DNA of 64,000 nucleotides from a virus (IMGVR_UViG_3300021400_005610); one strand, 5' to 3'. Positions 5,975-55,672 are shown, numbered from the stretch's first letter. The notes: generated from the letters alone by a model not told the origin. A program made the numbers and translations.

Positions 5975-5985
5975 GGTAGATAATT

Positions 5986-40500: not shown

Positions 40501-41313
40501 AGTAATACGATTGTTCATGCTGGTCATGACTATTCGTTGCAGACGATTCCTACGTTGTCTTCCGCTTTGGACTTTGACGTTCGTAAGAATCAGCCTGATT
40601 TTATGAAGATGTTGAATAAGCGTATCGAACAGTCTACGATGTCTGAACCTGCTAAGATTGCGTATCAGCAAGCTTATGGTTATTCTGATTATGAGATTGA
40701 ACAGCTTGACCCAGATAACTATGCAGATGAGATTATGACGATTATCAATAATTATCTGCGTAAGAGGGAAGAAGCTACGAATGAGCAGGACGAGAATGAG
40801 TTCGAGATGGATTTTTCTGATGATTGGATGGGCGACGTTGAGGAGAACACGGAGCAGTTACAGGCTAATGCCGAGGCTGCTGCACAACAGTCCAATAAGG
40901 ATCAGAAGCGTTATGCTGGCAATATGCTGTCTCGTGAAGACCTCGTATCTTCAACGTCTGGTGTTAACCACTCGTTAGATAAGGATATTATCGAGAGTTA
41001 TCTTGAAGTGAAGCGTTATATGTGGAACGATACTACGAAGTTCGTTAATATGCATGGCGATTTGTATGGCTTGAATAGCGAACCGTATATCATTCGTTCG
41101 TCTACATCTGAAGATTTGGCTGAATTGCAGAAAGCCGCTGAGGATAAGGATTCTAAGGTTTATTCCGAGGGTAAGATTAACGAGAAAGATTTGAATTCTC
41201 TTGGTTCTTACGAGGTAACAGATGCGTTCTATCGTTTCTTGGTGTCGCTTGACCGTTGGGATTTTGCACAGGGTCGTTTTGATACAGAAATGGCGCGTCG
41301 TATGAATGCTTAA
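37582..41313 (+). CDS. type IV coupling protein (TraG/VirD4 family)
   Basis: Two N-terminal TM helices. Walker A AITRAGKGQT matches the T4CP APTRSGKG type, and Walker B is FMLDELGNL. GGAAGGAGG RBS precedes ATG 37582. Confidence 0.8.
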   Translation: MPKSTSNWDRLRGRNVQDTMQFRDVYEDQQLERTRIGEKQTMTSRNILNAVLTVVVFFVSYYMIGIVKAISSYLYGYDQQSHSFAYYVGHFSFTRVLICLIISAVFYGVMYLVLKHNLDVQNGTLDTSDINQYQNDQHIALPEEIQRKFDWFPDVGATSDVQFSSMISHCALSNKGLNEVEVARRVPQDIKDDDGDVVLYKGEILRDEDDNILYETKPMIDIDFMNALYDASGLPNVKGLRKFYNATMIPYNPDNKDRDKLKGYDTVADLINGDWQLPAYEPQRPGGAYLVDTAPVNTMVLAITRAGKGQTVIEPTLDMWTRERRPNNMVINDPKGELLVKFYVRSTVRGFQVVQFNLINAMKTDIYNPLGLAAEAAREGDFTKAALYVENIADVFFPVDGGDDPVWPNAANNAFKRAAYGLIDYYLEEEKELRSFAEKTRMDEKVLETKLDAMWGKVTLYNTYQLFVQLTSRKLKNPAVEFTKDAKAGKFDSMSDEEYQDKLAEVEAKSKLWEDKPEADLLTLYFNATDTLPTNSMRRLVSNANNALRSMAGAEKMLASVYGIAITAMSFFTDPTISTLTSGTPSQNADLPGLSFPRTFGIRFHSDFLAKYHLIGMQAQWMSYHDKDFTQEMGKDFYHEDTISREGWAKYYFKGKYPKDIAYVRLQIVNPQTGMLIRSFYFQFKKSYQTSLDARYYITDPILGDKIVKNGVLVELRQFKTKDGKIVYRKAKTQFKQMKIPDVLTSKRLESVNTVAIIRTQVRYSEKPKMVFLVTPPHLMKYAKLILILVKQLVDLNFDKSYMTKSNQKPLYKTRFMLDELGNLQSEGHGISGFATMLSIGLGQEQQFTLILQTLQQLRDVYGDSVDKIVQGNTSNIVFLKSTDDSMLDTLQKMSGTTHRTFKDSKTITVDKERLFMQNDPKQTVTMTTKEVPVISYNDMAFISERNSIVFRAGDSPVWNRNEMILPMSWRLFSNTIVHAGHDYSLQTIPTLSSALDFDVRKNQPDFMKMLNKRIEQSTMSEPAKIAYQQAYGYSDYEIEQLDPDNYADEIMTIINNYLRKREEATNEQDENEFEMDFSDDWMGDVEENTEQLQANAEAAAQQSNKDQKRYAGNMLSREDLVSSTSGVNHSLDKDIIESYLEVKRYMWNDTTKFVNMHGDLYGLNSEPYIIRSSTSEDLAELQKAAEDKDSKVYSEGKINEKDLNSLGSYEVTDAFYRFLVSLDRWDFAQGRFDTEMARRMNA

Positions 41314-42563: not shown

Positions 42564-42592
42564 TTGACAATGCTTTGGGGAAAGAGTATAAT
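42564..42592 (+). promoter_or_regulatory. sigma70-like promoter (TTGACA-17-TATAAT) driving the leader of the tRNA array
   Basis: Consensus hexamers at 42564-42569 and 42587-42592. Divergent from the minus-strand promoter described above. Confidence 0.65.
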
Positions 42593-43006: not shown

Positions 43007-43081
43007 TGGTTCGTAGCTCAATGGCAGAGCAATCGGCTGTTAACCGATAGGTTGGGGGTTCGAGTCCCCCCGTTCCAGCCA
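43007..43081 (+). tRNA. tRNA-Asn (GTT)
   Basis: Cloverleaf with D-stem gctc/gagc and anticodon loop ctGTTaa. T-arm ggggg-ttcgagt-ccccc and an encoded CCA. The acceptor stem has two central U-U mismatches. Confidence 0.5.
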
Positions 43082-43101
43082 TGGTTCATAGGAGGTACGA
43101 T

Positions 43102-43368
43102 ATGAAATTACGACATGTGTGCGAAGTCTGTGGGAAAGAGGAAGTATTGACTCCTGATGAAGCATTTGAAAAAGGATGGGATTATCCTCCGAGAATGGGG
43201 ATGTTTGGAGTGTTATCGCCAAGAACCTGTGGTGATTGTGCGATGGTCGATACGATCTGGTGGAAATTGATGTATCAGAATGTGAAATCTGAAGATTTAT
43301 CTGATAAAGATAAGTTGACTTTGTCTCGTATCTTGAATGAACCAGCAAGTATTTTAGTTGATGAGTGA
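43102..43368 (+). CDS. Zn-ribbon protein (CxxC...CxxC), hypothetical
   Basis: AGGAGG RBS precedes ATG 43102. Contains CEVCGK...CGDC. Confidence 0.5.
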   Translation: MKLRHVCEVCGKEEVLTPDEAFEKGWDYPPRMGMFGVLSPRTCGDCAMVDTIWWKLMYQNVKSEDLSDKDKLTLSRILNEPASILVDE

Positions 43369-43376
43369 ATGGGTAT

Positions 43377-43453
43377 GGACTGGAAGCTAACTCGGTAGAA
43401 GCGCTTGGTTGAAGCCCAAGAGGAGCGGGTTCGACTCCTTGCCTAGTCCACCA
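43377..43453 (+). tRNA. aberrant tRNA-like element (Phe-like GAA anticodon arm), possible pseudo-tRNA
   Basis: Ends in CCA. The anticodon arm is cttgg-ttGAAgc-ccaag. The T-like arm aggag-cgggttcga-ctcct has a 9-nt loop. The acceptor ggactgg/cc(t)agtcc needs a 1-nt bulge and there is no variable loop. Confidence 0.3.
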
Positions 43454-43467
43454 TAGTTTGAAAGGAG

Positions 43468-43977
43468 ATGTTTAATTTGGGCGAAATGTTTATGAGGCCA
43501 AATGGTCAAGCAGTATTGCTGCAGGACATTGCGAAAATCGCAGCGGAATATATGGCGCGTAGTCCTATGTCACATTATGAGGTGACGGTAGGTACCGATA
43601 GCCAGAATTTCGATAAGACAAAGATGGTTGAGGTTATCGCATTACACCGTGTTGGTAGCGGTGGCATCTTCTTCTATCGTGTGAACTATGTGCGTCGTAT
43701 TGATAATCTGCGTCAGAAGATTCAAGAAGAAACGCAACGTAGTTTGTCCGTGGCGGACGGTTTGTTTAGTGAGATTGAAACGCAGTTAACTCACTTTGGT
43801 GTGGACATCAATGATATGGATATTCATTTCCAGATTCATTGCGACGTCGGCTACAACGGAAGCACGAAGGCTCTGATCCAAGAAATTGTTGGATGGGTTC
43901 AAGCAATGGGCTATGATTGTGCAATTAAGCCAAACAGCTATGCTGCAAGCGGAATTGCCAATAAATATAGCAAATAA
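43468..43977 (+). CDS. DUF458/YkuK-like RNase-H-fold protein (tentative)
   Basis: AAAGGAG RBS. TVGTDSQNF...MVEVIALHRVGSGGIFFY resembles the YkuK family. The family assignment is from memory and not verified. Confidence 0.45.
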   Translation: MFNLGEMFMRPNGQAVLLQDIAKIAAEYMARSPMSHYEVTVGTDSQNFDKTKMVEVIALHRVGSGGIFFYRVNYVRRIDNLRQKIQEETQRSLSVADGLFSEIETQLTHFGVDINDMDIHFQIHCDVGYNGSTKALIQEIVGWVQAMGYDCAIKPNSYAASGIANKYSK

Positions 43978-43981
43978 AAGG

Positions 43982-44014
43982 TTTCGGAGCGGAGATTTCG
44001 CTCCCGTTCCGAAA
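43982..44014 (+). terminator. stem-loop terminator
   Basis: tttcggagcgg agattt cgctcccg ttccgaaa is a nested inverted repeat. Confidence 0.45.
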
Positions 44015-44020
44015 TCATAT

Positions 44021-44098
44021 GTTGGCGGTAGCTCAATTGGTGAGAGCATCGGGTTGTGGCCCCGAAGGTTGCGAGTTCGAGTCTCGTCCGTCACCCCA
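44021..44098 (+). tRNA. tRNA-His (GTG)
   Basis: Anticodon loop ttGTGgc. An extra 5' G(-1) pairs with discriminator C, the His hallmark. T-arm gcgag-ttcgagt-ctcgt and an encoded CCA. Confidence 0.75.
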
Positions 44099-44136
44099 TG
44101 ATGGCGTAAGTCATCAAAAGAAAGGACTTTATTGGA

Positions 44137-44733
44137 ATGTTTTCAGAGAAAAATAGAAAGTTGGTCGAAGCATACCAGAATGGGTATCATCCGACAGGAC
44201 AAAATTATGAATATTATGTTGCTTGTGAATTTGAAGCATTGGGCTATAAGACCTATGTTACTCGTGCAACAGGGGATTTTGGTACGGATGTGATTGTGGA
44301 GATCAATCGCTATTTTAAGATCATTTTTCAATGTAAGTATTATAGTTCAAAGATTGGAAATCATGCTGTACAGGAGATATGTGCAGCAAAAGAGTATTAC
44401 AAGGCACAATTGTGTGTTGTAATTACAAATAACACATATACAGAAGCAGCTATGCAACTTGCTGAAGCAAATCATATACTTTTGATTCAAAATTTTGACG
44501 TAGGCGATAATATTGAGTCGGTATGTGAAGTGTTAGGGTTAATCCCTGAAAAGTACGTTACGTTAAACAAATTGAAGCTAAATGATGCATCTGCGGAGCG
44601 AGATTATCTTGTGAAACAAGTGCATGCTTTGGAAGAGGAGTTATTTGATTATCGAGTGGATCCGTGGTGGAATCCTGTTTCGATGTGGGATGACGAACCT
44701 GAGATTGAAGAGTCTGATGAAAATAGTGGTTAA
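44137..44733 (+). CDS. Mrr-cat (restriction endonuclease-like) domain protein
   Basis: GDFGTDVIVE...FQCKYY is the D-(E/Q)xK PD-(D/E)xK-like core typical of the Mrr N-terminal catalytic domain. Confidence 0.55.
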   Translation: MFSEKNRKLVEAYQNGYHPTGQNYEYYVACEFEALGYKTYVTRATGDFGTDVIVEINRYFKIIFQCKYYSSKIGNHAVQEICAAKEYYKAQLCVVITNNTYTEAAMQLAEANHILLIQNFDVGDNIESVCEVLGLIPEKYVTLNKLKLNDASAERDYLVKQVHALEEELFDYRVDPWWNPVSMWDDEPEIEESDENSG

Positions 44734-44734
44734 T

Positions 44735-44809
44735 GCGTGTGTCGTCTAACGGTGAGGATATCAGCCTTCCAAGCTGAGGGTACGGGTTCAATTCCCGTTA
44801 CACGCTCCA
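44735..44809 (+). tRNA. tRNA-Gly (TCC)
   Basis: Acceptor gcgtgtg/tacacgc, anticodon loop ctTCCaa, T-arm acggg-ttcaatt-cccgt, CCA. Confidence 0.8.
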
Positions 44810-44810
44810 T

Positions 44811-44886
44811 GGCAGAGTTAAGGAAGTGGTTGCCTTGCAGGTCTCATAAACCTGATATACGGGTTCGAATCCCGTCTCTGCTACCA
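44811..44886 (+). tRNA. tRNA-Met (CAT) elongator (or Ile-lysidine)
   Basis: Anticodon loop ctCATaa, T-arm acggg-ttcgaat-cccgt, CCA. Confidence 0.75.
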
Positions 44887-44889
44887 TAT

Positions 44890-44965
44890 GCTCTTGTAGC
44901 GCAACAGGTAGCGCGGCTGATTTGTAATCAGTAGGTTGCAGGTTCGATTCCTGTCGGGAGCTCCA
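44890..44965 (+). tRNA. tRNA-Thr (TGT)
   Basis: D-arm gcgc-aacaggta-gcgc, anticodon loop ttTGTaa, T-arm gcagg-ttcgatt-cctgt, CCA. Confidence 0.8.
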
Positions 44966-45053
44966 GCTGTTGTGGCGGAATGGAAGACGCGATAGGCTCA
45001 AACCCTATTGTCATGGAAATGGCGTGTGAGTTCAAATCTCACCAACAGTACCA
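44966..45053 (+). tRNA. tRNA-Leu (CAA), type II
   Basis: Long variable arm. Anticodon arm atagg-ctCAAac-cctat, T-arm gtgag-ttcaaat-ctcac, CCA. Confidence 0.75.
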
Positions 45054-45141
45054 GCCGATGTGGTGGAATCTGGTAGACACCCCAGACTTAAAATCTGGTG
45101 TTCGTATGAGCGTACGGGTTCGAGTCCCGTCATCGGTACCA
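45054..45141 (+). tRNA. tRNA-Leu (TAA), type II
   Basis: Anticodon arm ccaga-ctTAAaa-tctgg, long variable arm, T-arm cggg-ttcgagt-cccg, CCA. Confidence 0.75.
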
Positions 45142-45162
45142 CGAACATTAGAGAAAGGATGT

Positions 45163-45305
45163 ATGAAAAGATGTGCAAGCAGCTATCTATGGATGATATA
45201 GGATATTTTCTCTATATGCAGTCGCAAGAAGAGAAAGATGAAGATTTAGAAAATACAGAAGATGAAACATGCATCAGTGACGGAATGGAAGACGTGACAG
45301 GCTAA
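45163..45305 (+). CDS. small acidic ORF (47 aa), doubtful
   Basis: GAAAGGA RBS plus an ATG between two tRNAs. The longer track ORF 45060-45305 overlaps a tRNA and is rejected. Confidence 0.25.
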
Positions 45306-45358
45306 GAACCTGTTGTCCTTAACGGGGCGTGTGAGTTCGAATCTCACCTGATGTACCA
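45271..45358 (+). tRNA. tRNA-Leu with apparent AAG anticodon, type II
   Basis: Same architecture as the Leu(CAA) gene. The anticodon arm acagg-ctAAGaa-cctgt reads AAG at 34-36, which is unusual for bacteria. T-arm gtgag-ttcgaat-ctcac, CCA. Confidence 0.6.
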
Positions 45359-45444
45359 GGGTCGGTGAGCGGAATTGGTAACGCAGCGGGCTGTAACCCC
45401 GTGGCCTTTTGGCATTCCTGGTTCAAGTCCAGGTCGACTCACCA
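45359..45444 (+). tRNA. tRNA-Tyr (GTA), type II
   Basis: Acceptor gggtcgg/tcgactc with two G-U pairs. Anticodon loop ctGTAac, long variable arm, T-arm cctgg-ttcaagt-ccagg, CCA. Confidence 0.75.
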
Positions 45445-45450
45445 ATATTT

Positions 45451-45538
45451 GCACGAATGGCGGAACGGAAGACGCGCTGGTTTCAGAGGCCAGTGTCACG
45501 AAAGTGGCGTGAGAGTTCAAATCTCTCTTTGTGCACCA
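45451..45538 (+). tRNA. tRNA-Leu (CAG), type II
   Basis: Anticodon arm ctggt-ttCAGag-gccag, long variable arm, T-arm gagag-ttcaaat-ctctc, CCA. Confidence 0.75.
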
Positions 45539-45630
45539 GGGTTGGTGTGGCGAATTGGTGAAGCCAGCGGACTGTAAATCCGTCACCCACAGGGTAAACA
45601 TTGGAGGTCCGAGTCCTCCCCAGCCCACCA
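45539..45630 (+). tRNA. tRNA-Tyr (GTA) second copy, type II
   Basis: Acceptor gggttgg/ccagccc, anticodon loop ctGTAaa, long variable arm with a ccc-aca-ggg hairpin, T-arm ggagg-tccgagt-cctcc, CCA. Confidence 0.7.
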
Positions 45631-45633
45631 TAT

Positions 45634-45710
45634 GGCTCTGAGGGAAAACAGGTTGATCCGCCTGCCTGTCACGCAGGAGATAGCGGGTTCGAGCCCCGCC
45701 AGAGTCGCCA
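45634..45710 (+). tRNA. tRNA-Asp (GTC)
   Basis: Acceptor ggctctg/cagagtc, anticodon arm cctgc-ctGTCac-gcagg, T-arm gcggg-ttcgagc-cccgc, CCA. Confidence 0.75.
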
Positions 45711-45711
45711 T

Positions 45712-45802
45712 GACTGTGTGGTGTAATGGAAGTCGACTTAAATATATAGCACACCAAGTGGTCTCTTAGGAGGTTCAGGTTCGATTCCTGACACAGTCGC
45801 CA
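45712..45802 (+). tRNA. aberrant ~91 nt tRNA-like element (acceptor and T-arm intact, no canonical anticodon arm found)
   Basis: Acceptor gactgtg/cacagtc, T-arm tcagg-ttcgatt-cctga and CCA are all clean. The internal ~60 nt contains a ggtgt...acacc helix and I could not locate a 5-7-5 anticodon stem-loop. Confidence 0.3.
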
Positions 45803-45862
45803 AGTCCATAGGGCAATAGCAGAGGTATCGTGACAATCACTATTGCCGACGATCTATGGACT
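45803..45862 (+). ncRNA. 60-nt perfect extended hairpin (not a tRNA)
   Basis: agtccatag-ggcaatag ... ctattgcc-gacgat-ctatggact forms 9 bp + 8 bp helices around a 20 nt loop, wedged between two tRNAs. Confidence 0.35.
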
Positions 45863-45867
45863 AATCT

Positions 45868-45943
45868 GGGGTTGTAGCTCAACTGGGAGAGCGCCTGCCT
45901 TGCAAGCAGGAGGTAGAGGGTTCGACACCCTTCAGCTCCACCA
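45868..45943 (+). tRNA. tRNA-Ala (TGC)
   Basis: A G3-U70 pair (Ala identity) is present. Anticodon arm cctgc-ctTGCaa-gcagg, T-arm gaggg-ttcgaca-ccctt, CCA. Confidence 0.85.
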
Positions 45944-46032
45944 GGTTAGGAAAGCCGTTAAGAAACGAGATATCTGTTTCGATGTTACTGATATGGACGG
46001 ACAAGTGAGTTGTGATGGTTCGGCTCACATAT

Positions 46033-46108
46033 GGATTGATAGCTCAGATGGTAGAGCAGGGGACTGAAAATCCCCGTGTCGCTGGTTCAATTCCAGCTCA
46101 ATCCACCA
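46033..46108 (+). tRNA. tRNA-Phe (GAA)
   Basis: Acceptor ggattga/tcaatcc, D-arm gctc-agatggta-gagc, anticodon arm gggga-ctGAAaa-tcccc, T-arm gctgg-ttcaatt-ccagc, CCA. Confidence 0.85.
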
Positions 46109-46185
46109 GGACCGTTAGGTCAATTGGTTAGACCACTCGGCTCATAACCGAATAGTTCTGGGTTCGAGTCCCAGGCGGTCCACCA
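46109..46185 (+). tRNA. tRNA-Met (CAT) second copy (elongator, or Ile2-lysidine)
   Basis: Anticodon loop ctCATaa. It lacks the initiator GGG/CCC anticodon-stem signature. T-arm ctggg-ttcgagt-cccag, CCA. Confidence 0.7.
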
Positions 46186-46190
46186 TCGAT

Positions 46191-46267
46191 GTCCCATTAG
46201 CTCAGTGGACAAGAGTAGTACTCTCCTAAAGTACAAGTCGATGGTTCGAATCCATCATGGGACGCCA
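46191..46267 (+). tRNA. tRNA-Arg (CCT)
   Basis: Acceptor gtcccat/atgggac, anticodon arm gtact-ctCCTaa-agtac, T-arm gatgg-ttcgaat-ccatc, CCA. Confidence 0.8.
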
Positions 46268-46276
46268 AATAAATAT

Positions 46277-46354
46277 GGTGCCATAGTCGAACTGGTTGAA
46301 GACACTGGCCTTTCAAGCCAGAGAGTCGGGGTTCAAGTCCCCGTGGCATCACCA
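46277..46354 (+). tRNA. tRNA-Glu (TTC)
   Basis: Acceptor ggtgcca/tggcatc, anticodon arm ctggc-ctTTCaa-gccag, T-arm cgggg-ttcaagt-ccccg, CCA. Confidence 0.8.
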
Positions 46355-46357
46355 TAT

Positions 46358-46433
46358 GCGGTAGTAGCGCAATTGGTAGCGCACCACCTTGCCAAGGTGG
46401 ATGTTGCGGGTTCAAGCCCCGTCTACCGCTCCA
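46358..46433 (+). tRNA. tRNA-Gly (GCC)
   Basis: Acceptor gcggtag/ctaccgc, anticodon arm ccacc-ttGCCaa-ggtgg, T-arm gcggg-ttcaagc-cccgt, CCA. Confidence 0.85.
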
Positions 46434-46511
46434 GGTCCCTTCTTCTAATTGGTTTAGGAAGTTGGCCTCTCAAGCCAAAAATGCTGAGTTCGAGTCTCGC
46501 AGGGATCACCA
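46434..46511 (+). tRNA. tRNA-Glu (CTC)
   Basis: Acceptor ggtccct/agggatc, anticodon arm ttggc-ctCTCaa-gccaa. The T-arm has one mismatch. CCA. A C34 Glu isoacceptor is uncommon in low-GC bacteria. Confidence 0.65.
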
Positions 46512-46588
46512 GTGCCCGTAACTCAATGGAATAGAGTAACGGTCTTCTAAACCGTAAGTTATGGGTTCGAATCCCATCGGGCATGCCA
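46512..46588 (+). tRNA. tRNA-Arg (TCT)
   Basis: Anticodon arm acggt-ctTCTaa-accgt, T-arm atggg-ttcgaat-cccat, CCA. Confidence 0.8.
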
Positions 46589-46622
46589 TGGGTTTGTATA
46601 AATCAAAGAAAGGATGTGAAAA

Positions 46623-46859
46623 ATGGTATCTGTAAGGGTGTTATTGAATTCATTGGAAAAGGTTAAGTCTTTTGTTTCGATTGTCGGTAAGTTTGATGCA
46701 GATATGGAAATTGTTTCTGGTAAGTATATTGTTGATGCAAAGTCTATTATGGGTTTATTCAGTATGAATTTGTTAGAGCCAATGACGTTGGTTATTAAAG
46801 CAGACAATCCTGCTTGTGTGAATGTATTGGATGATATTAGACCATATGTTTATGGTTGA
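46623..46859 (+). CDS. HPr/Crh-like phosphocarrier-fold protein lacking the His15 active site
   Basis: 78 aa with a GAAAGGA RBS. GKYIVDAKSIMGLFSMNL matches the HPr Ser46 region (KSIMG), but the His15 position is replaced (LNSLEK), as in Crh. Confidence 0.55.
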   Translation: MVSVRVLLNSLEKVKSFVSIVGKFDADMEIVSGKYIVDAKSIMGLFSMNLLEPMTLVIKADNPACVNVLDDIRPYVYG

Positions 46860-46862
46860 TAT

Positions 46863-46940
46863 GCGCTTGTAGCTTAATTGGTAGAGCAGCGGACTCTTAA
46901 TCCGAAGGTTTTGGGGGTTCAAGTCCCTTCAGGCGCACCA
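46863..46940 (+). tRNA. tRNA-Lys (CTT)
   Basis: Acceptor gcgcttg/caggcgc, D-arm gctt-aattggta-gagc, anticodon arm gcgga-ctCTTaa-tccga, T-arm ggggg-ttcaagt-ccctt, CCA. Confidence 0.75.
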
Positions 46941-46988
46941 TCGAGTCCTACTATTGTCATTAGGCTGTTGAGCCGTAAGGAGGACATT

Positions 46989-47585
46989 ATGAGTTATTAC
47001 TATAATTATTATGTCGGATATAAGAAAGATGGAAAGATTTATCCGTGGGGTCCTTACAATGCGAATGGTAAGTTAGAACCAATGGTCAGTCGTTCCAGAT
47101 CTTTTGCTTCGGATTTACATGAGGAGTTTGATACTGTATCTGATAAGGAAGTTTCAGAAGAACTTCGTAAAGAATTTGAGTATGAGGATTGGAATAAGGT
47201 CAAGCATCTTGATGTAAAATATCTTTCCGAAAAGGATTTACCGACAGGAAGTTATATTAGGACAGGTTATTTTTTGATTAAAGATGTCCAAGCATATGAG
47301 CATGATGAGTATGGTAATTTCGAAGGTTTTTATGATGTCCTTAGTCCTGAAGTTTATGCGGCAAAATTACAGCATGAAATGATGTTTGGTAAGAATCAAC
47401 CTGAGAAAGACGATGAAGGCAATGAATATACAGAGCCAAATGCATCGGATTATATGTACTATGCGTATCCTAATTATGAGACGAAAGAGTACGAATCGTT
47501 CATTCTTCGGCAGTTAATTGAGGCTTTGCGTGATTATCGTTTGGGTAATGATATTGAGTATGTCGTTTTAGAAACGGAAGGTTGA
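46989..47585 (+). CDS. hypothetical protein (Tyr-rich N-terminus)
   Basis: Strong RBS GTAAGGAGG. The track ORF start at 46878 overlaps the tRNA and is rejected in favour of ATG 46989. Confidence 0.55.
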   Translation: MSYYYNYYVGYKKDGKIYPWGPYNANGKLEPMVSRSRSFASDLHEEFDTVSDKEVSEELRKEFEYEDWNKVKHLDVKYLSEKDLPTGSYIRTGYFLIKDVQAYEHDEYGNFEGFYDVLSPEVYAAKLQHEMMFGKNQPEKDDEGNEYTEPNASDYMYYAYPNYETKEYESFILRQLIEALRDYRLGNDIEYVVLETEG

Positions 47586-47596
47586 TCCTTTCGTAT

Positions 47597-47670
47597 CGAG
47601 ATGGTGGTGTAATGGTAGCACGCATCGTTCGGGACGATGAGGCGACGTTCAAATCGTACCATTTCGACCA
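47597..47670 (+). tRNA. tRNA-Pro (CGG)
   Basis: Acceptor cgagatg/catttcg, anticodon arm catcg-ttCGGga-cgatg with G37. The T-arm is weak at 3 bp. CCA. Confidence 0.6.
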
Positions 47671-47696
47671 ATTTCTTATGTAAAGGGGTTAACGGT

Positions 47697-47966
47697 ATGT
47701 TCCATAACATTGTGATTGGCAGACCTTTGGTTGAGCCGTGGAAGTTAATTTCAAGTTCTAAAGAAGAGTTTGAAAGATTTGATAAACGCGATACGTTATT
47801 TACCAATGAGAGGTTTCTTCCAGCTGTGCTTGTAGAAGCAAATGTCGTATCTTCTCGTGGAGAAGTTCGAAGAAATAAACCAGAATTATGTAAGGAACTG
47901 AATAATTTGGATTGTTTGTGGGTAAAATGGGGGAAACAGAAGATTTATGTGATTGTTGGTGAGTAA
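47697..47966 (+). CDS. hypothetical protein
   Basis: ATG 47697 is preceded by AAAGGGG. The track ORF start at 47637 overlaps the tRNA. Confidence 0.45.
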   Translation: MFHNIVIGRPLVEPWKLISSSKEEFERFDKRDTLFTNERFLPAVLVEANVVSSRGEVRRNKPELCKELNNLDCLWVKWGKQKIYVIVGE

Positions 47967-47969
47967 TTT

Positions 47970-48045
47970 GCGTCTGTAGCTTAGGCGGTAGAGCAGCGGA
48001 CTTTTAATCCGAAGGTCGGGAGTTCAAGTCTCCCCAGACGCACCA
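47970..48045 (+). tRNA. tRNA-Lys (TTT)
   Basis: Perfect acceptor gcgtctg/cagacgc, anticodon arm gcgga-ctTTTaa-tccga, T-arm gggag-ttcaagt-ctccc, CCA. Confidence 0.85.
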
Positions 48046-48340
48046 GTGTGTTGGTAGCCAAGCAATAAAAGGCAGTAAGACAATAGCGGTTCCATTAAGC
48101 AGAACACTTGGAGAACGAACTCCAGAGCGCATGGCGGCTAAGAGAGACTCTGTATAGTAAAATGACCGAGTGCTGAAGCATTTATATTATGCAGAGGGAG
48201 ACCCAATCGACAAGGTGAATGAGGTCGAGCCTACGCAGTTTCACCAAATAACGTTGTGTCACTCTGTATGGAACGTCGTGTGATTGATGTCGAAACCTGC
48301 GTCGTGGATGCAGAAGTCGACTACTGCACACCCAACACAC
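48046..48340 (+). ncRNA. candidate ~295-nt structured non-coding RNA between tRNA-Lys and tRNA-Pro
   Basis: No credible ORF on either strand. A terminal 9-bp helix gtgtgttgg(48046)/ccaacacac(48332) closes the element. Internal helices are tggag-aacgaa-ctcca, tcgac-13nt-gtcga, a long-range acgcagtttc/gaaac-c-tgcgt pairing (48234/48292), and tgcag-10nt-ctgca. Confidence 0.4.
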
Positions 48341-48345
48341 ATTAT

Positions 48346-48421
48346 CTGGGTGTAGTGCAATTGGTAGCATGCGTGATTTGGGATCACGTGGTTGTGGGTT
48401 CAAATCCCGCCACTCAGACCA
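48346..48421 (+). tRNA. tRNA-Pro (TGG)
   Basis: Acceptor ctgggtg/cactcag, anticodon arm cgtga-ttTGGga-tcacg with G37, T-arm gtggg-ttcaaat-cccgc, CCA. Confidence 0.8.
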
Positions 48422-48498
48422 AATTTGTGTATTGTGTTATCTCCGTGGCGGATTTATAATTTTTGTAGAAATAAATCCAGAAAGGATGGTAAGTTGAT

Positions 48499-48972
48499 AT
48501 GGCAAATGAAATCAAAAACGGAAGATTGCATGTTGATGGGAAGAGAATTCCGTTGTCTATGGATGAAGCTCGTTCTATGAAGATGAATGCCTTTACAGGA
48601 CGACAGGTATCTGAAGAAGCATCGGTTGAAATTCCTGAAGATAAGAAGGGTCAATATGCTTTTACACAGGATATTCTGCAGAAGAAGATGAAGCCTGATA
48701 AGGAATTGTCGTATACGGAAGATGAATATAAAGCTGCTGAAGATGTGTATGGCAGAATGCGTACAGCACAATCCATGGCTATGGATAGTTTGATGCCATC
48801 TGATGAAGAGTTTAAGGCTTTAAATACCGATGCGTTTACGGCTGTTACGAGGGATGCTGCTGAGAGAGAAGCTGAAGCAAAGCGTCAGGAGCGTTTGAAG
48901 AAAGCCGAAGAATTGTCGTCACGTGTTAGTGAACCGACAGAATCTCCACTGGCAGAGTACGGAATTTATTAA
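48499..48972 (+). CDS. hypothetical protein
   Basis: 157 aa with an AAAGGATGG RBS. Charged and probably helical. Confidence 0.5.
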   Translation: MANEIKNGRLHVDGKRIPLSMDEARSMKMNAFTGRQVSEEASVEIPEDKKGQYAFTQDILQKKMKPDKELSYTEDEYKAAEDVYGRMRTAQSMAMDSLMPSDEEFKALNTDAFTAVTRDAAEREAEAKRQERLKKAEELSSRVSEPTESPLAEYGIY

Positions 48973-49220
48973 AACTTTTTTCTCGAAATCTATTGATTTC
49001 TGAGTAAAAGTATGGTATTATATAGTTGCGTCGGAAAGACGAGAAGAAATGAGAAAGGATGTCACGAAAATGATGAATTTCACTATGAGTCAAAGTTCAC
49101 AGGTCATTATTCGCTGGTCGCAGGTATGCTCCCAGTTTATTTGTCGTGGACGGGTAACTCATTCCTAATGTGAGATCATCTGATTTTCTTTGTGATATTT
49201 GAGAAAAAGGGGAATCACAA

Positions 49221-49270
49221 CACCGTTCGCGATAGGATAGGATTATCCGAAGCGAGCGGTGTTTTTTATT
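49221..49270 (+). terminator. rho-independent terminator
   Basis: caccgttcgc ...21 nt... gcgagcggtg followed by ttttttatt. Confidence 0.6.
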
Positions 49271-49277
49271 AAAAAAT

Positions 49278-49366
49278 GGTAGTGTCGCTCAATGGTGGAG
49301 CAACTGCCTTGAAAGCAGCCAGTCGAGGGCCTCGACCTGCAGGTTCGAATCCTGCCACTACCGCCA
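49278..49366 (+). tRNA. tRNA-Ser (TGA), type II
   Basis: Perfect acceptor ggtagtg/cactacc. Anticodon loop ctTGAaa. Variable-arm hairpin gtcgagg-gcc-tcgac. T-arm gcagg-ttcgaat-cctgc, CCA. Confidence 0.8.
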
Positions 49367-49461
49367 GGTGATATAAACCTAATTGGTAAGGTCCCTGTCT
49401 CGAAAACAGGTAGTAGCCCTGTTAAAGGGGTGTTTCGGTTCAAGTCCGAATATCACCGCCA
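49367..49461 (+). tRNA. tRNA-Ser (CGA), type II
   Basis: Acceptor ggtgata/tatcacc, anticodon arm cctgt-ctCGAaa-acagg, long variable arm, T-arm ttcgg-ttcaagt-ccgaa, CCA. Confidence 0.8.
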
Positions 49462-49466
49462 CAAAT

Positions 49467-49560
49467 GGAGTCGTAAGCCTAATTGGTAAGGCGCCGATTT
49501 GGAAGGTCGGTAGTAATCCTGCTGAGGGGTGTGTTGGTTCGAGTCCAATCGACTCCGCCA
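49467..49560 (+). tRNA. tRNA-Ser (GGA), type II
   Basis: Acceptor ggagtcg/cgactcc, anticodon arm ccgat-ttGGAag-gtcgg, long variable arm, T-arm gttgg-ttcgagt-ccaat, CCA. Confidence 0.8.
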
Positions 49561-49580
49561 TTTGAAAGGATGTGTGAAGT

Positions 49581-49871
49581 TTGACAGAACAAAGAGTATT
49601 GGAATTTATTCATAGACGCTTTCCTCAGGATTGTAACTGGAAGAATGGAAATTGTTATTTCTTTGCAGTGATTCTAAAAAGTAGATTTCCAGAAGGAATT
49701 ATTCTTTACGATGTGATTGACGGTCATTTTGTGACACACATCGATGGACGAAATTATGACTGGTCGGGTGTTGTTTCTGATGAAGGAAAGCATTATTATG
49801 TTGAGTGGGATTATTTCGATGAGTATGATTCTAATCAGAAGAAATCTGTGATTGACGGATGTATTCTTTGA
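49581..49871 (+). CDS. hypothetical protein (TTG start)
   Basis: GAAAGGA RBS 10 nt upstream of TTG 49581. The only upstream in-frame ATG is immediately followed by a stop. Confidence 0.45.
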   Translation: MTEQRVLEFIHRRFPQDCNWKNGNCYFFAVILKSRFPEGIILYDVIDGHFVTHIDGRNYDWSGVVSDEGKHYYVEWDYFDEYDSNQKKSVIDGCIL

Positions 49872-49876
49872 TAAAT

Positions 49877-49951
49877 AGGGGTATGGTGTTAACGGTAGCA
49901 TATCGGTCTCCAAAACCGCAGGTGAGGGTTCGAGTCCTTCTGCCCCTGCCA
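49877..49951 (+). tRNA. tRNA-Trp (CCA)
   Basis: Acceptor aggggta/tgcccct, anticodon loop ctCCAaa on a 4 bp stem, T-arm gaggg-ttcgagt-ccttc, CCA. Confidence 0.7.
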
Positions 49952-50093
49952 CGTTCAGAGTCATGAACTGAACGATATCTTAACGATTCGTAAGTGACGT
50001 AATCAGCTGTAAAGACGTGCCACCTGAAGCATTCGATATGTACGGTGCTTTGGGTGAGATCCGACTATGAATCGGCGAAGACGAATCGGATAT

Positions 50094-50170
50094 AGGGTGT
50101 TAGCTCAGCTGGGACGAGCATTTGTCTTACAAGCAAAAGGTCGTGGGTTCGATCCCCACACACCCTACCA
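50094..50170 (+). tRNA. tRNA-Val (TAC)
   Basis: D-arm gctc-agctgggac-gagc, anticodon arm tttgt-ctTACaa-gcaaa, T-arm gtggg-ttcgatc-cccac, CCA. Confidence 0.8.
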
Positions 50171-50245
50171 TGGGATATGGCGTAATTGGTAACGCATCGG
50201 ACTCTGACTCCGAAGTTACAGGTTCAAGTCCTGTTGTCCCAGCCA
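50171..50245 (+). tRNA. tRNA-Gln (CTG)
   Basis: A U1-A72 pair as in bacterial tRNA-Gln. Anticodon arm tcgga-ctCTGac-tccga, T-arm acagg-ttcaagt-cctgt, CCA. Confidence 0.8.
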
Positions 50246-50320
50246 TGGGTTATAGCGTAAGTGGTAGCGCACGGGACTTTGACTCCCGACGTACAGGTTC
50301 GAGCCCTGTTAGCCCAGCCA
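50246..50320 (+). tRNA. tRNA-Gln (TTG)
   Basis: Acceptor tgggtta/tagccca, anticodon arm cggga-ctTTGac-tcccg, T-arm acagg-ttcgagc-cctgt, CCA. Confidence 0.8.
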
Positions 50321-50414
50321 GGAGACGTAGCATAGTCGGTCGAATGCACCCGCCTGCTAAGCGGGAGAACGGTGAATAATCGTTCCGAGGGTTCGAATCC
50401 CTCCGTCTCCGCCA
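50321..50414 (+). tRNA. tRNA-Ser (GCT), type II
   Basis: Perfect acceptor ggagacg/cgtctcc, anticodon arm cccgc-ctGCTaa-gcggg, long variable arm, T-arm gaggg-ttcgaat-ccctc, CCA. Confidence 0.85.
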
Positions 50415-50453
50415 TGTTGTATTGATTGGCTTTTATTATGAAAGGTTGTGATT

Positions 50454-50960
50454 ATGAGTATAGAAACTGCAGAAGCGTTATTTAAGAAATATGATGGTCA
50501 TATTAATCTTTTACGGAAAAACGAACCGTCATCGTATGCAATCATAAGCGCTGCGTGCTTGAGTGATGATTGTTACGAAGAGTGGCGTAAAGAAATTTTG
50601 GACGGCATAACGCAAATGGGTGTTTCTGATATTTTCAATATTACATGGTTTATTCGTTTTGTGTCTGTATTTAAAGAAATGAATCGGAATGAAACATATC
50701 GGTTTGATTGTTTGGTTGATTTATTGAGAGCATATGTGAAGAGCAATGATTCTTGTAAGATCGAGATATTGCGTAAGATGGTTGGTAATGTTCGTTTCGG
50801 TTATCGAGATGGCTTGCTTTATTGGGTGTTACGAAATACTTCTGGATTTAGTGTCGTAGAGGCTATTATGCAGCAGAATTATGTAAATGTAGATTCTAAT
50901 AATCCTTCTTTAGTTGATCTGAGTGAGCAATATAAGAAGGCTGTATATAAATTTGTGTGA
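50454..50960 (+). CDS. hypothetical protein
   Basis: ATG 50454 has a GAAAGG RBS. The track start GTG 50448 is also possible. Confidence 0.5.
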   Translation: MSIETAEALFKKYDGHINLLRKNEPSSYAIISAACLSDDCYEEWRKEILDGITQMGVSDIFNITWFIRFVSVFKEMNRNETYRFDCLVDLLRAYVKSNDSCKIEILRKMVGNVRFGYRDGLLYWVLRNTSGFSVVEAIMQQNYVNVDSNNPSLVDLSEQYKKAVYKFV

Positions 50961-50965
50961 TATTT

Positions 50966-51042
50966 GACTGCGTACCCAAGTGGCTTAAGGGGGCAGACTG
51001 CAAATCTGTTATTCGTTGGTTCGAATCCAACCGTAGTCTCCA
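50966..51042 (+). tRNA. tRNA-Cys (GCA)
   Basis: Acceptor gactgcg/cgtagtc, anticodon arm gcaga-ctGCAaa-tctgt, T-arm gttgg-ttcgaat-ccaac, CCA. Confidence 0.75.
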
Positions 51043-51119
51043 TCTGGAGTAGCTCAGACGGTTAGAGCGTCCGCCTGATAAGCGGGAGGTCGGCAGTTCA
51101 AGTCTGCCCTTCAGAACCA
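51043..51119 (+). tRNA. tRNA-Ile (GAT)
   Basis: D-arm gctc-agacggtta-gagc, anticodon arm tccgc-ctGATaa-gcggg, T-arm ggcag-ttcaagt-ctgcc, CCA. U1-A72 is unusual. Confidence 0.75.
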
Positions 51120-51195
51120 GTCCCCATAGGCTAATGGAATAGACCCTTCGGCTACGAACCGAACAGTGGAGGTTCGAATCCTCCTGGGGATGCCA
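51120..51195 (+). tRNA. tRNA-Arg (ACG)
   Basis: Acceptor gtcccca/tggggat, anticodon arm ttcgg-ctACGaa-ccgaa, T-arm ggagg-ttcgaat-cctcc, CCA. Confidence 0.8.
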
Positions 51196-53059: not shown

Positions 53060-53110
53060 ATTTGTAGCTTAAATGGGCTTTAGTTCGCATTTAGGAAAGG
53101 ATTGAATGGA

Positions 53111-55672
53111 ATGTCGGAACACATTGAAGGAATTATTACTCGTTTAGTAAAAGGTACTCCGAAAGCAAACCGTTGGTTTGCAGGTAGTGTTCGTTTATCC
53201 GATGGAAGTTACGTTCGTGTTGCTGGTACAGCTAACGTGCGTGTAAATATAGGAATGACCATTGAGTTTAATGGTGATTTGGTTAGCACCAATTATGGTG
53301 ATCAGTATGAGCCTGTTTCAGGTGAATTGATTCGTCGTCGTTTAGTGACGAAATTTGAAATAATTTCGTTTTTGACGAGTCCTGTTTTTCCTGGTATTGG
53401 TGAGAAATCAGCAAAGCTGATTTATGAGAAATATAAAGACCAAACGATGCCTATGCTGGAACAGCATATGGATCAAGTTATTGCAGATTGTAAGCTGAAT
53501 AAGTCTCAAGCTGCTGGTTTGGTCAAAGGTATTTCTTCTACTTCTGGTTTGGCAAAGCTGAAGTATACATTTCCGCATATGAAGCAGTATCTTTTGGATA
53601 GAATTTTAGATACTGTCGATGTACGTCATTTGGATGATGTTGTCGATAGGATTTGTAGAAATCCATATACTGCGTTATATGGTGATACTGGTTTCAATGT
53701 GTCATTGTATGATACAGATGAGATTGCCCTTTTGGATGTTGGTTTTGATGAATATGCGAAAGAACGTATTGATTTGGTGGTGTATGCTGCTTTGTCAGAA
53801 TTTATGGGTGACAAGAACGCTACTTACGTGAAGATTGATTATGATCATAATTTTGCGGAATATACTTGGTTTTTTAACAAGTATGTTCGTGCGGTTAGAC
53901 TTTTCAAGCCGTTGCCGATATATTGGGATGGCATGTTGTTTGATGCCAACTGTTTAGCTATGAAGTTTCAACAGTATTGGGATGATATTCATAGTTTTTC
54001 GTCCTGTGTTTGTTCGGATAGACGAATCAACCCTGATGGAACAGGGGAGTTTGATTTGTATCAGAAGAAAATTTATTTGGCAGAAAAGTCTTTAGTGGAA
54101 CAAATCAATCGTTCTTACAATGATACGATGAATACGGCTTATATGAAGAGAACGGTTAAGTTCGTTCAATGGTATAAGGCGATGAAAGCGGAAGGTGTTT
54201 ACACAAACACGAATCCTGATCAAGATCAAGTTGCTGCTGTAAGGCAAGTATTTGGTTCTTGTATGTCATTTTTGTCAGGCGGACCTGGTCGTGGTAAGAC
54301 CGCAACCATTGGTTTTTTGATTAATGCGTGGAAACAGTCTGTTGGTAATCATATTCTGTTGCTTGCACCTACAGGTAAGGCTGTGAATAAGGTGAAGGAT
54401 GCAACGAAGTACGTGAATGCTGAGACCATTCGTCGTTTCATTTTAATCAATAAATTGAAACGTACTAAAGATTCAGATTATATCTTGGATATGTATGGCG
54501 ATAAGATGCCTATTGGTCTGAATACATTAGTTGTTATTGATGAAACGTCCATGTTGGACTTTGTGGAAGCAAGCGATCTGTTGTCTGTTATTGACGGTTG
54601 TACGATTGTGTTTTCTGGTGATAAGGATCAGTTATCTCCGATTAGTCCTGGTTCATTTCTTTCGGAAATGTTGGATAGTCATAAGATTAATCTGTCTCTT
54701 TTGACACATAACTATCGTACTGATGTCCCTGAGTTGGGCGAGAATGCAGATAAGATATTAGCTGGTTGTAAGGTTACGGATTTGACTTTGACAGATAATT
54801 TTAGTATTATTCCATCAAAGGAACGTGCGGATGATGGCGGTTTGTCGCCAGCTGAAAAGTACATTCTGAATGAATATGCTGATCGCATGGCAGAAGGTGC
54901 TGATTTTTCGGACATTCTTGTTGTTGCGCCATTTACGAATAGTAAGTATGGTTTGTCAGCAGGCCATTTGAATTATGTCTTACAGGCAAGATTTAATCCA
55001 CAAGATGATAAGGCGTATTATAAGTATGGCCAGGATGATTACGGACGGTATATCGATAAGAGAGGTAAGGAATGCCCTGTCTTAGATAAGTCTGGTAATC
55101 GTGTGCGTCTTGGTGATCGTGTTATTAACAATCGTAATAACATGGATGCGTCTTGGCATAGTTTTAAGAATGATAATGTTGGTTACGAATCGTCTTTGGA
55201 CGATCCAATAGATAGTGCGATTAACACGGGTGTGTTTAATGGCGATATGGGTACCATCGAGCGTTATTACGAAGCAACGGATTCTGATGGTCCGAGGATT
55301 TTGGTCTGTTTGGATCAGCTTTCTCCGTATGGAAAGCGTCGTTATGTGTGGGTTGATTGCGAGTCTGATTTTCATGGTGTATGGCATTTAGCCGATTGGA
55401 CTTTAGGTTATGCACTTAGCGTACACAAAGCACAGGGTAGTGAGGCTCGCCATGTAATTGTGGCTTTATCTGAAGAAGGTTATAAAGCCGTCAGTTGGCG
55501 TGTTATGAATGGTTCAGCTCCATTCTTGACGAGAAACATGTTGTATACAGCTGTGACTCGTGCAAAAGAATCAGTACGGATTATCGGTAGTTTAGTTGCG
55601 TTGCAAGCTTGTTTAGATATGCCGTATTACTACTGTAATGTTCGTTTGGCTGAGGCGTTAGATAAAGCATAA
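53111..55672 (+). CDS. RecD2-like superfamily-1 DNA helicase
   Basis: Walker A SGGPGRGKTATIG and Walker B VVIDETSMLD. The C-terminal VHKAQGSEARHVIV is a RecD/TraA-like motif. The N-terminal ~300 aa extension includes an HhH-like segment. Confidence 0.85.
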   Translation: MSEHIEGIITRLVKGTPKANRWFAGSVRLSDGSYVRVAGTANVRVNIGMTIEFNGDLVSTNYGDQYEPVSGELIRRRLVTKFEIISFLTSPVFPGIGEKSAKLIYEKYKDQTMPMLEQHMDQVIADCKLNKSQAAGLVKGISSTSGLAKLKYTFPHMKQYLLDRILDTVDVRHLDDVVDRICRNPYTALYGDTGFNVSLYDTDEIALLDVGFDEYAKERIDLVVYAALSEFMGDKNATYVKIDYDHNFAEYTWFFNKYVRAVRLFKPLPIYWDGMLFDANCLAMKFQQYWDDIHSFSSCVCSDRRINPDGTGEFDLYQKKIYLAEKSLVEQINRSYNDTMNTAYMKRTVKFVQWYKAMKAEGVYTNTNPDQDQVAAVRQVFGSCMSFLSGGPGRGKTATIGFLINAWKQSVGNHILLLAPTGKAVNKVKDATKYVNAETIRRFILINKLKRTKDSDYILDMYGDKMPIGLNTLVVIDETSMLDFVEASDLLSVIDGCTIVFSGDKDQLSPISPGSFLSEMLDSHKINLSLLTHNYRTDVPELGENADKILAGCKVTDLTLTDNFSIIPSKERADDGGLSPAEKYILNEYADRMAEGADFSDILVVAPFTNSKYGLSAGHLNYVLQARFNPQDDKAYYKYGQDDYGRYIDKRGKECPVLDKSGNRVRLGDRVINNRNNMDASWHSFKNDNVGYESSLDDPIDSAINTGVFNGDMGTIERYYEATDSDGPRILVCLDQLSPYGKRRYVWVDCESDFHGVWHLADWTLGYALSVHKAQGSEARHVIVALSEEGYKAVSWRVMNGSAPFLTRNMLYTAVTRAKESVRIIGSLVALQACLDMPYYYCNVRLAEALDKA

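Follow-up and report, generated by a model that had tools for sequence, protein, structure and literature searches.

Structure and content of the tRNA array

The window analysed here is a stretch of 64,000 nucleotides (IMGVR_UViG_3300021400_005610) with a GC content of 42%, which forms part of a 284,210-bp metagenome scaffold (ENA ERZ28612966, SHIW14-1_SAMN02144230-S007_METAG-scaffold_28), where it corresponds to 18896-82895 in reversed orientation. A total of 36 tRNA genes in a single orientation were identified by ARAGORN at 43007-51195 (+). All of them exceeded the gathering score of the Rfam model RF00005, the lowest being the second Tyr-GTA gene (92 nt, 29.3 bits). They represent 33 distinct anticodons and 20 amino acids within 8,189 bp, or 4.4 genes per kb, and their order across the array is non-repetitive. 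An earlier interpretation made from the sequence alone (the sequence-only reading) was confined to 44966-50245, and the array reaches past this interval. A tRNA array unit has been defined by at least 20 tRNA genes at a density of at least 2 per kb (Tran et al., 2016, PMC4758250), and the present array exceeds both thresholds.

The 3' CCA is encoded in all 36 genes. Syntenic arrays of 35 and 38 tRNAs were detected in the relatives L002 and L005/L006, respectively, whose helicases are 43-44% identical to that of the window, and these arrays are placed between the same RNase H-like/Mrr open reading frames (ORFs) and the helicase. Neighbouring tRNA genes abut with a spacer of 0 nt at 13 of the 35 junctions in the window, 13 of 34 in L002 and 17 of 37 in L005.

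Eight of the 13 possible tRNA species with C at anticodon position 34 (C34) are encoded, together with U34, G34 and A34 species, and the same C34 set was found in all three arrays (window, L002 and L005). The eight are those listed by the sequence-only reading, and ARAGORN and Rfam located each of them within the interval that it covered. They comprise Leu-CAA (44966-45053), which abuts Leu-TAA to form the UUR-box pair at 44966-45141, Leu-CAG (45451-45538), Arg-CCT (46191-46267), Glu-CTC (46434-46511), Lys-CTT (46863-46940; 82% identity to Lys-TTT), Pro-CGG (47597-47670), Ser-CGA (49367-49461) and Gln-CTG (50171-50245; 82% identity to the abutting Gln-TTG), all on the + strand. The same reading described the C34 tRNAs as standing alongside U34 versions. 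This is true of seven, as Lys, Glu, Gln, Arg(AGR), Pro, Ser and Leu(UUR) each have a U34 partner, but not of Leu-CAG, since the array has no Leu-TAG. Both U34 and C34 species are present in all five split purine boxes, while C34 species occur in three of the eight family boxes.

Two tRNAs with a CAT anticodon were distinguished by their sequence features. The tRNA at 44811-44886 (+) is of the elongator-Met type and is devoid of initiator features. The tRNA at 46109-46185 (+) has a GGACCGT acceptor with C4-G69 and C5-G68, is kept in L002 and L005, and is probably tRNA-Ile2, which carries lysidine and reads AUA; we presume this from its likeness to Firmicutes tRNA-Ile(CAU). No initiator tRNA was detected in the window. 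An initiator-like CAT tRNA (CGCGGGG acceptor, C1xA72) was found only in L005/L006. In L005 it lies with an extra Thr-TGT gene at 5928-6076, and the same place in the window (48422-49277) is occupied by a 157-aa ORF (48499-48972), which accounts for a window set without initiator tRNA. A switch from Thr-CGT to Thr-TGT at an orthologous position was considered and rejected, because the window Thr-TGT is nearer to the other Thr-TGT of L005 (80% vs 72%).

Structure and conservation of tRNA-Leu(AAG)

A type II tRNA-Leu gene with the anticodon AAG is located at 45271-45358 (+), and Leu-CAG is the only other CUN-box tRNA in the array. The gene has an acceptor stem GCATCAG/CTGATGT with G1-U72, a 3-bp D stem, an anticodon stem ACAGG/CCTGT, a long variable arm, a T-arm GTGAG/CTCAC, the discriminator A73 and the CCA end, and its minimum-free-energy fold is a cloverleaf. 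The anticodon A34-A35-G36 given by the sequence-only reading stood up to re-inspection, as the loop (C32-U33-A34-A35-G36-A37-A38) is in register, contains U33 and is 7 nt long. The closest paralogue in the array is Leu-CAA, with 75% identity.

The orthologues in L002, L005 and L006 keep A34-A35-G36, and the differences in their stems are compensatory. Across the three lineages the acceptor stem is GCATCAG or GTGCCAG, the anticodon stem ACAGG, CCAGA or ATAGG, and the T stem GTGAG or GCGGG. When eight array-borne Leu-AAG genes from several families were compared, 17 of 25 pairs were held by double changes. The anticodon was invariant throughout, in the three element lineages as well as in five other array families. 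These covarying pairs and the invariant anticodon suggest that the Leu-AAG gene is conserved and apparently functional. The sequence-only reading had regarded it as a non-standard bacterial tRNA that might be inactive. This view is contradicted by the covariation and by the documented tRNA-Leu(AAG) of Lactobacillales (PMC13249217, PMC11472039).

The leucine complement of the arrays in the window, L002 and L005 consists of CAA, TAA, AAG and CAG, with neither Leu-UAG nor Leu-GAG. Leu-AAG is the sole reader of CUU and CUC within the array, where it would stand in for both missing species.

Predicted editing of tRNA-Leu(AAG)

Several Lactobacillales families possess a tRNA-Leu(AAG) of their own, and their TadA fully deaminates its A34 to inosine (I34) (PMC13249217, PMC11472039). 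The Lactobacillales tRNA-Leu(AAG) with I34 was first shown in Oenococcus oeni. The streptococcal TadA, with the consensus YUAMGRA, edits Leu-AAG fully (PMC11472039, PMC13249217). Two positions, 35 and 37, set the streptococcal tRNA-Leu(AAG) apart from tRNA-Arg(ACG), and the TadA of E. coli does not edit it (PMC11472039). When AAG was placed in an Arg2-type loop (C32 U33 A34 A35 G36 A37 A38), about 15% was edited by E. coli TadA and editing was abolished by A37G (PMC11066159). The unmodified AAG anticodon read CUU better than CUC, and reading of CUA and CUG was undetectable (PMC11066159).

The Leu-AAG loop of the window, CUAAGAA, is exactly the Arg2-type loop and also fits YUAMGRA. It differs at position 35 only from the loop CUACGAA of the array's own tRNA-Arg(ACG) (51120-51195, +), a canonical TadA substrate. 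The loop of L002, UUAAGGA (U32, G37), fits the streptococcal consensus only. As the anticodon loop in the window copies that of tRNA-Arg(ACG), A34 may plausibly be edited by the TadA of the host. The dominant CUU codon would be decoded by Leu-AAG with or without editing.

A zinc-deaminase motif scan of the window, L001, L145 and the relatives revealed no TadA in the about 84 kb of the 284-kb element that were inspected (the window and flanking loci), and the CDA-fold match obtained was a dCMP deaminase only. This 148-aa protein (L001 15587-16033, -), which contains PF00383 and MafB19-deam, was considered as an element-encoded TadA and rejected. It scores as a ComEB-type dCMP deaminase, matches no TadA model, and has dCMP deaminases as its best PDB matches. 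The gene is located about 2.2 kb beyond the window, and dCMP deaminases of this ComEB/T4-Cd-like kind were found near SecA family-wide (L002 21603-22049; L008 20921-21352; L064 13077-13844), that of L064 being 255 aa long with an extension.

Distribution of Leu-AAG genes in other genomes

Genome and metagenome collections were scanned with a Leu-AAG consensus pattern. A total of 105 single Leu-AAG genes were detected on high-GC loci, all with the loop CUAAGGA. They belonged mainly to metagenome-assembled genomes (MAGs) of Acidimicrobiia/Actinomycetota in the genome scan and to contigs of 57-69% GC in the metagenome scan. The single-gene loci are among L012-L063 and L068-L144 (e.g., L014 3445-3534 and L048 3763-3851). 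The literature consulted places tRNA-Leu(AAG) almost only in Bacilli.

Leu-AAG genes in dense arrays were found at 18 loci of 35-54% GC, including the window and its relatives, and some of these arrays contain further A34 species. Such species beside Leu-AAG were Ser-AGA with the loop CTAGAAA (L127, 6700-6788) and Val-AAC (L106). A34 tRNAs may be recurrent in mobile arrays. An unrelated second array type with 12-16 genes and 50-54% GC encodes Leu AAG/CAG/CAA/TAA, Glu CTC/TTC and Gln CTG/TTG. It was found in L052 (5542-6833, -), L074, L079, L084, L114, L118 and L129. L052 is a locus of a rumen Ruminococcaceae MAG, in which the array is flanked by hydrolase and SDR genes.

The A37 loop occurs in six of the 18 array-borne Leu-AAG genes, distributed over three independent array families, and in none of the 105 chromosomal genes; this count is a lead and not a result, as the sample was restricted by the search pattern and holds few independent lineages. 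A tentative and somewhat unlikely extension, with which this count would be consistent, is that Leu-AAG acts as a portable inosine-type leucine decoder. Its Arg-like loop would then have evolved to be editable by the ordinary TadA of any host, and Clostridia to which eukaryote-like CUN decoding by IAG plus CAG, without UAG and GAG, is not native would acquire it with the array.

Codon usage and array content

Codon usage was calculated from 17,723 codons of element genes. AAG accounts for 65% of Lys, CAG for 77% of Gln and GAG for 41% of Glu codons, and CTG occurs 199 times, in agreement with the free use of these four codons noted by the sequence-only reading. Within UUR-Leu, TTG outnumbers TTA (540 vs 210; 72% TTG), and in the CUN box the order is CTT (292) > CTG (199) >> CTC (37) >> CTA (7). 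The third-position frequencies are T3 0.45, G3 0.25, A3 0.18 and C3 0.11. Essentially all large ORFs are on the + strand, which is G- and T-rich. The GC skew is +0.23 overall and ranges from +0.17 to +0.32 in every 2-kb window of 1-64000, and the T3- and G3-rich codon usage can be attributed to this strand skew.

With liberal wobble the array alone reads 99.83% of the codons, all but CGG, and under strict rules it reads 97.4-97.6%. The repertoire is a near-complete set and not one biased to C34 species, as had been supposed from the sequence alone. The presence of a C34 tRNA was not significantly related to the NNG counts in the window (Mann-Whitney p = 0.14). There are 330 ACG codons and yet no C34 tRNA for them, while the rare AGG (72 codons) has one.

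The comparison with L002 (53% GC) also argues against an array kept mainly for G-ending codons. The RSCU (relative synonymous codon usage) of L002 and the window correlate at only r = 0.21, and the same core tRNA set is kept in spite of this. Selection on completeness more than on G-ending codons is therefore suggested. Tuning to usage is marginal. In L002, CGG makes up 28% of the Arg codons and GGG 16% of the Gly codons, and of the three arrays only that of L002 includes Arg-CCG and Gly-CCC. The two tRNAs are absent from the window (3% CGG, 3% GGG) and from L005 (6% and 6%). The differences between L002 and the window in CGG and GGG use were significant (Fisher p 1e-31 and 4e-16, respectively). 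From these counts we conclude that selection probably preserves the set as a whole, with slight adjustment to usage, and that the C34 genes are one component of it.

At a chromosomal locus of the Lachnospiraceae type, CAG makes up 96% of the Gln codons, implying a native Gln-CUG in that organism. A host of the Lachnospiraceae kind is unlikely to be without Gln-CUG, and the premise that a low-GC Firmicutes host relies on U34 tRNAs alone is doubtful. The RSCU of the element and of this locus, the organism of which is not known as the host, correlate at r = 0.49, and the element over-uses TTG, GGT and CGT.

Other features of the array region

Two nuclease-type ORFs are embedded in the array: an RNase H-like ORF (PF04308; 43468-43977, +), which is syntenic in the relatives, and an ORF with the Mrr_cat restriction-endonuclease fold (44137-44733, +). 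A sequence matching the sigma-70 consensus at 12 of 12 positions (TTGACA-17-TATAAT; 42564-42592, +) is located about 415 nt 5' of the first tRNA and is a candidate promoter of the array; promoter-like sequences overall are not more numerous than expected by chance.

An additional tRNA-like RNA was recognized at 45712-45803 (+). Its acceptor stem is 8 bp long, its T-arm (TTCAGGTTCGATTCCTGA) is canonical and it has a 3' GCCA, but its core is not a cloverleaf, and it was missed by both ARAGORN and Rfam (the latter at E<=1). Conservation in L005/L006 is about 90%, and L002 lacks this RNA. It is followed by a conserved hairpin at 45805-45860 (z = -2.7).

The carrier element

The genes upstream of the array encode an actin-like ParM/Alp protein (8-1033), an MscS channel (1136-1909), a ParA-type partition ATPase (2045-2827, +), a 1,515-aa ORF with a weak collagen-repeat match (15061-19608), which is locally GC-rich (49-53% vs about 42%), a MobL-family relaxase (29311-31410, +; PF18555, E 2.6e-53), a ClpB-like ATPase (33342-35144) and a type IV coupling protein of the VirD4/TraG type (37522-41313, +; PF02534, PF12696, PF10412). 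Neither Pfam nor PHROGs gave a match for the large ORFs at 10396-15064 and 35169-37442. Downstream of the array are a RecD2-like helicase (53102-55672, +), used as the backbone marker for finding relatives, a second double-AAA+ ATPase (57460-60051) and a SecA homologue without the SEC-C tail (60635-63064, +). A primase, a type IA topoisomerase and a cell-wall hydrolase are also encoded on the element, and directly 3' of the window are a Cna_B/SHIRT surface protein, the dCMP deaminase and an RNase H. Functions of a housekeeping type are thus duplicated on the element (tail-less SecA, ClpB-like ATPase, double-AAA+ ATPase and MscS), and SecA is kept family-wide.

MobL relaxases are a Firmicutes family, and the relaxase and type IV coupling protein found here are among the traits of MOB-L conjugative plasmids (PMC5313138). 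The tblastn matches of the relaxase fall under annotated mobL genes in plasmids. No capsid, portal or terminase match was obtained for 20 large ORFs searched against PHROGs or in Pfam scans of the large ORFs, and a VirB4-type ATPase was not identified in the large ORFs of the window with Pfam and PHROGs. Of genes that bear on an autonomous replicon, those for partition (ParA and the actin-like protein) were the only ones seen. When the array region was compared with 50,697 phage records by megablast, the matches were all of tRNA size, and IMG/VR contained no match to the helicase protein pattern or to the Leu-AAG DNA consensus. Because relaxase, coupling protein and partition genes are present and virion genes were not found among the large ORFs scanned, the element is best regarded as a giant conjugative plasmid-like replicon and not as a phage; it may otherwise be an integrative and conjugative element.

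Relatives and inheritance of the array

Between the window and L005, the tRNA genes share about 90% identity on average (63-100%), and the flanks are collinear at 70-75%. The higher conservation of the tRNA genes suggests that the array was inherited with the backbone under stronger purifying selection. A recent transfer of the array between elements was rejected, since the flanks are also collinear at this level.

Tail-less SecA homologues with 58-64% identity were found on contigs of 245-296 kb. One of them, L064 (259 kb), has the same gene order of helicase, 460-aa ORF, AAA+, SecA, deaminase and RNase H. These contigs and the window appear to form a family of similarly sized elements. In the more distant members L008 and L064, the corresponding site contains 7-8 tRNAs only. 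L145, a 98%-identical copy that extends upstream, contains no tRNAs and no deaminase. L010/L011 (31% GC; an HMP-type sample name and JGI 3300008636) have a helicase with 33% identity in the order helicase, about 450-aa ORF, AAA+ and RNase H/DUF2130, together with a type IV secretion system coupling protein and no tRNAs at this site. These two could be Inocle-like, as their GC content and the HMP-type sample name fit. No description of this element family was found in the searchable literature.

The nearest chromosomal SecAs (53-54% identity) are from Lachnospiraceae/Eubacteriales, on contigs of up to 3.3 Mb assigned to Blautia, Lachnoclostridium or Eubacteriales, and those in Enterococcus, Staphylococcus and Listeria records share about 45-47%. 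The bacterial RecD2 homologues are likewise from Lachnospiraceae. This is weak evidence for a Firmicute host within the Clostridia. L052 (52% GC) was considered as a lead to the host, but its tRNAs are only 65-87% identical and no host call was made; L019, also considered, is a truncated remnant. Relaxase and helicase searches of PLSDB returned distant plasmids only, and the MscS homologue search was uninformative on the host.

Proposed role of the array and alternative explanations

On balance we favour, with modest confidence, a tRNA array unit that serves as a spare, near-complete decoding set on a conjugative plasmid-like element of about 284 kb from a Firmicute, probably of the Clostridia. 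Element type, codon usage and the content, conservation and covariation of the genes were established here, and expression, processing, editing and selective benefit are inferred. The array would be transcribed from the + strand as polycistronic precursors. RNase P cleavage at the 5' end of one tRNA would release the mature 3' end of the preceding one, and with encoded CCA and zero-spacer abutment a single cut could mature both ends. The product would be a second tRNA pool for 20 amino acids, reading all sense codons but CGG and lacking an initiator, and it may insulate the translation of the several hundred genes of the element from the tRNA pool of the current host. The C34 isoacceptors would act as Watson-Crick readers of frequent NNG codons. 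Leu-AAG would read CUU, the top CUN codon, by Watson-Crick pairing, and with Leu-CAG it would cover the CUN box in a eukaryote-like manner. The host TadA probably converts at least part of Leu-AAG to I34, which would add CUC and the almost unused CUA.

Several observations weigh against this proposal. C34 presence and NNG counts are not significantly related, as described above. Leu-TAA is kept in L002 although TTA makes up 2% of its Leu codons, which implies that array content is not simply driven by usage. The avoidance of CTA (1%) and the excess of CTT over CTC (CTT >> CTC) are also seen at the chromosomal Lachnospiraceae-type locus, weakening CTA avoidance as a specific sign of a missing Leu-UAG. 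The L002 loop with G37 would escape editing by a strict TadA. A Leu-UAG or Leu-GAG, an initiator tRNA and a TadA could sit on the rest of the element. L-arrays elsewhere are often poorly transcribed (PMC8421152).

The completeness of the array could also reflect a counter-defence or insurance function, in which the array would mainly sustain translation after cleavage or depletion of the host tRNAs, for example by anticodon nucleases, toxin-antitoxin ribonucleases or stress, and completeness and divergence would outweigh codon match. Coverage of all amino acids regardless of need, conservation despite differing codon usage, tRNA sequences divergent from those of the other loci examined, and the Mrr-type nuclease and other small ORFs embedded in the array would all be consistent with it. 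The tRNA arrays of M. avium giant plasmids have been discussed as putative anti-defence systems (PMC12803027), and translation stress induces the Anabaena L-array (PMC8421152). We nevertheless consider this function unlikely, as a tRNA-targeting system was not identified nearby, no anticodon-loop deviations of the nuclease-escape kind were examined or noticed, and decoding demand is suggested by Arg-CCG and Gly-CCC having been gained in the relative that is rich in CGG and GGG. Quite unlikely, in our view, is a cryptic L-array that was inherited with the backbone as a hitch-hiker and is weakly expressed, its redundant isodecoders having little effect on decoding. L-arrays mostly add redundancy (PMC8421152), and the small tRNA sets of L064 and L008 indicate that a large array is dispensable for the family. 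However, such an array would hardly explain tRNA genes more conserved than their flanks and rich in compensatory changes, CCA ends and exact abutment held in three lineages, or a perfect consensus promoter upstream.

A further alternative, raised by the sequence-only reading, is that the Leu-AAG gene is an oddity, inactive or read out of register. Bacteria rarely have A34 in tRNAs other than tRNA-Arg, and the inspected DNA of the element yielded no TadA. Such an oddity is scarcely credible for a gene whose loop is in register, whose anticodon is invariant while its stems covary, and which alone in the array reads CUU and CUC, CUU being the commonest CUN codon. A huge phage, with the array boosting late-gene translation, could account for the large contig, the unidirectional genes, the many hypothetical proteins, some PHROG matches and a 'phage tail lysozyme' domain. 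It is highly improbable given the relaxase, coupling protein, ParA and ParM-like protein, the lack of structural or packaging genes among the large ORFs scanned, and the lack of relatives in IMG/VR or among deposited phages.

If the spare decoding set is real, conjugative elements of about 250-300 kb in gut and rumen Firmicutes carry their own near-complete decoding set, a concrete case of very large mobile elements insulating their expression from the host tRNA pool. The range of tRNA-Leu(AAG) is extended from Lactobacillales chromosomes to mobile DNA and, incidentally, to Acidimicrobiia chromosomes. The A37 and G37 loop variants on orthologous tRNAs of sister elements offer a natural test of TadA substrate rules. 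For annotation, a large uncharacterised contig should not be called a phage on the strength of its dense tRNA array.

Comparison with known systems

The array resembles the described tRNA array units and L-arrays (PMC4758250; Santamaria-Gomez et al., 2021, PMC8421152) in being co-oriented, dense and non-periodic, in its location on a transferable element, and in its embedded nuclease-type ORFs. It differs from most of them in its more complete set, in the presence of Leu-AAG with the absence of Leu-UAG and Leu-GAG, in the CCA encoded by every gene, and in more than one third of the junctions being spacerless. The closest functional precedent is pMP7017, a 190-kb conjugative megaplasmid of Bifidobacterium breve, likewise from the gut, with a transcribed array of 20 tRNAs that was explained as fitting the tRNA pool to the codons used by the plasmid (PMC10832533). 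pMP7017 belongs to another phylum and has another backbone, its array covers 12 amino acids only and is accompanied by a tmRNA, and no A34 Leu tRNA has been reported from it (PMC10832533).

The Inocles of oral Streptococcus are giant elements resembling plasmids, with 245-395 kb, VirB4 and VirD4, and 24-32% GC (PMC12340149). By their description they are similar in size, in VirD4, in a RecD-like helicase, in surface proteins of the sortase/LPXTG type, in a signal peptidase, in tRNAs and in that most genes are without known function. The present element differs from that description in its 42% GC, in a SecA nearest to Lachnospiraceae (53-54%) and not to Streptococcus (about 45% for Bacilli), and in a sample prefix (SHIW14) that may point to a sheep-rumen data set. 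Large-phage tRNA clusters (T4/T5-type and huge phages) are also dense, with tight or dimeric precursors and a proposed codon-usage or anti-defence benefit, whereas here the array is carried with genes for conjugation and partition, and the window showed no virion genes.

The tRNA-Leu(AAG) with I34 of Lactobacillales shares with the present gene the type II body, the anticodon A34-A35-G36, a loop that fits YUAMGRA and the replacement of Leu-GAG. Here, in contrast, the gene is plasmid-borne and has an A37 loop, while the tRNA-Leu(AAG) of S. pyogenes departs from tRNA-Arg(ACG) not only at position 35 but also at 37 (PMC11472039). Unlike in Lactobacillales, there is no Leu-UAG in this array, so that I34 (or nothing) must read CUA. 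An array on a mobile element is of a known kind, and the interest of the present one lies in its completeness, in the conserved Leu-AAG that appears to replace both Leu-GAG and Leu-UAG, and in the Arg-like anticodon loop of this tRNA.

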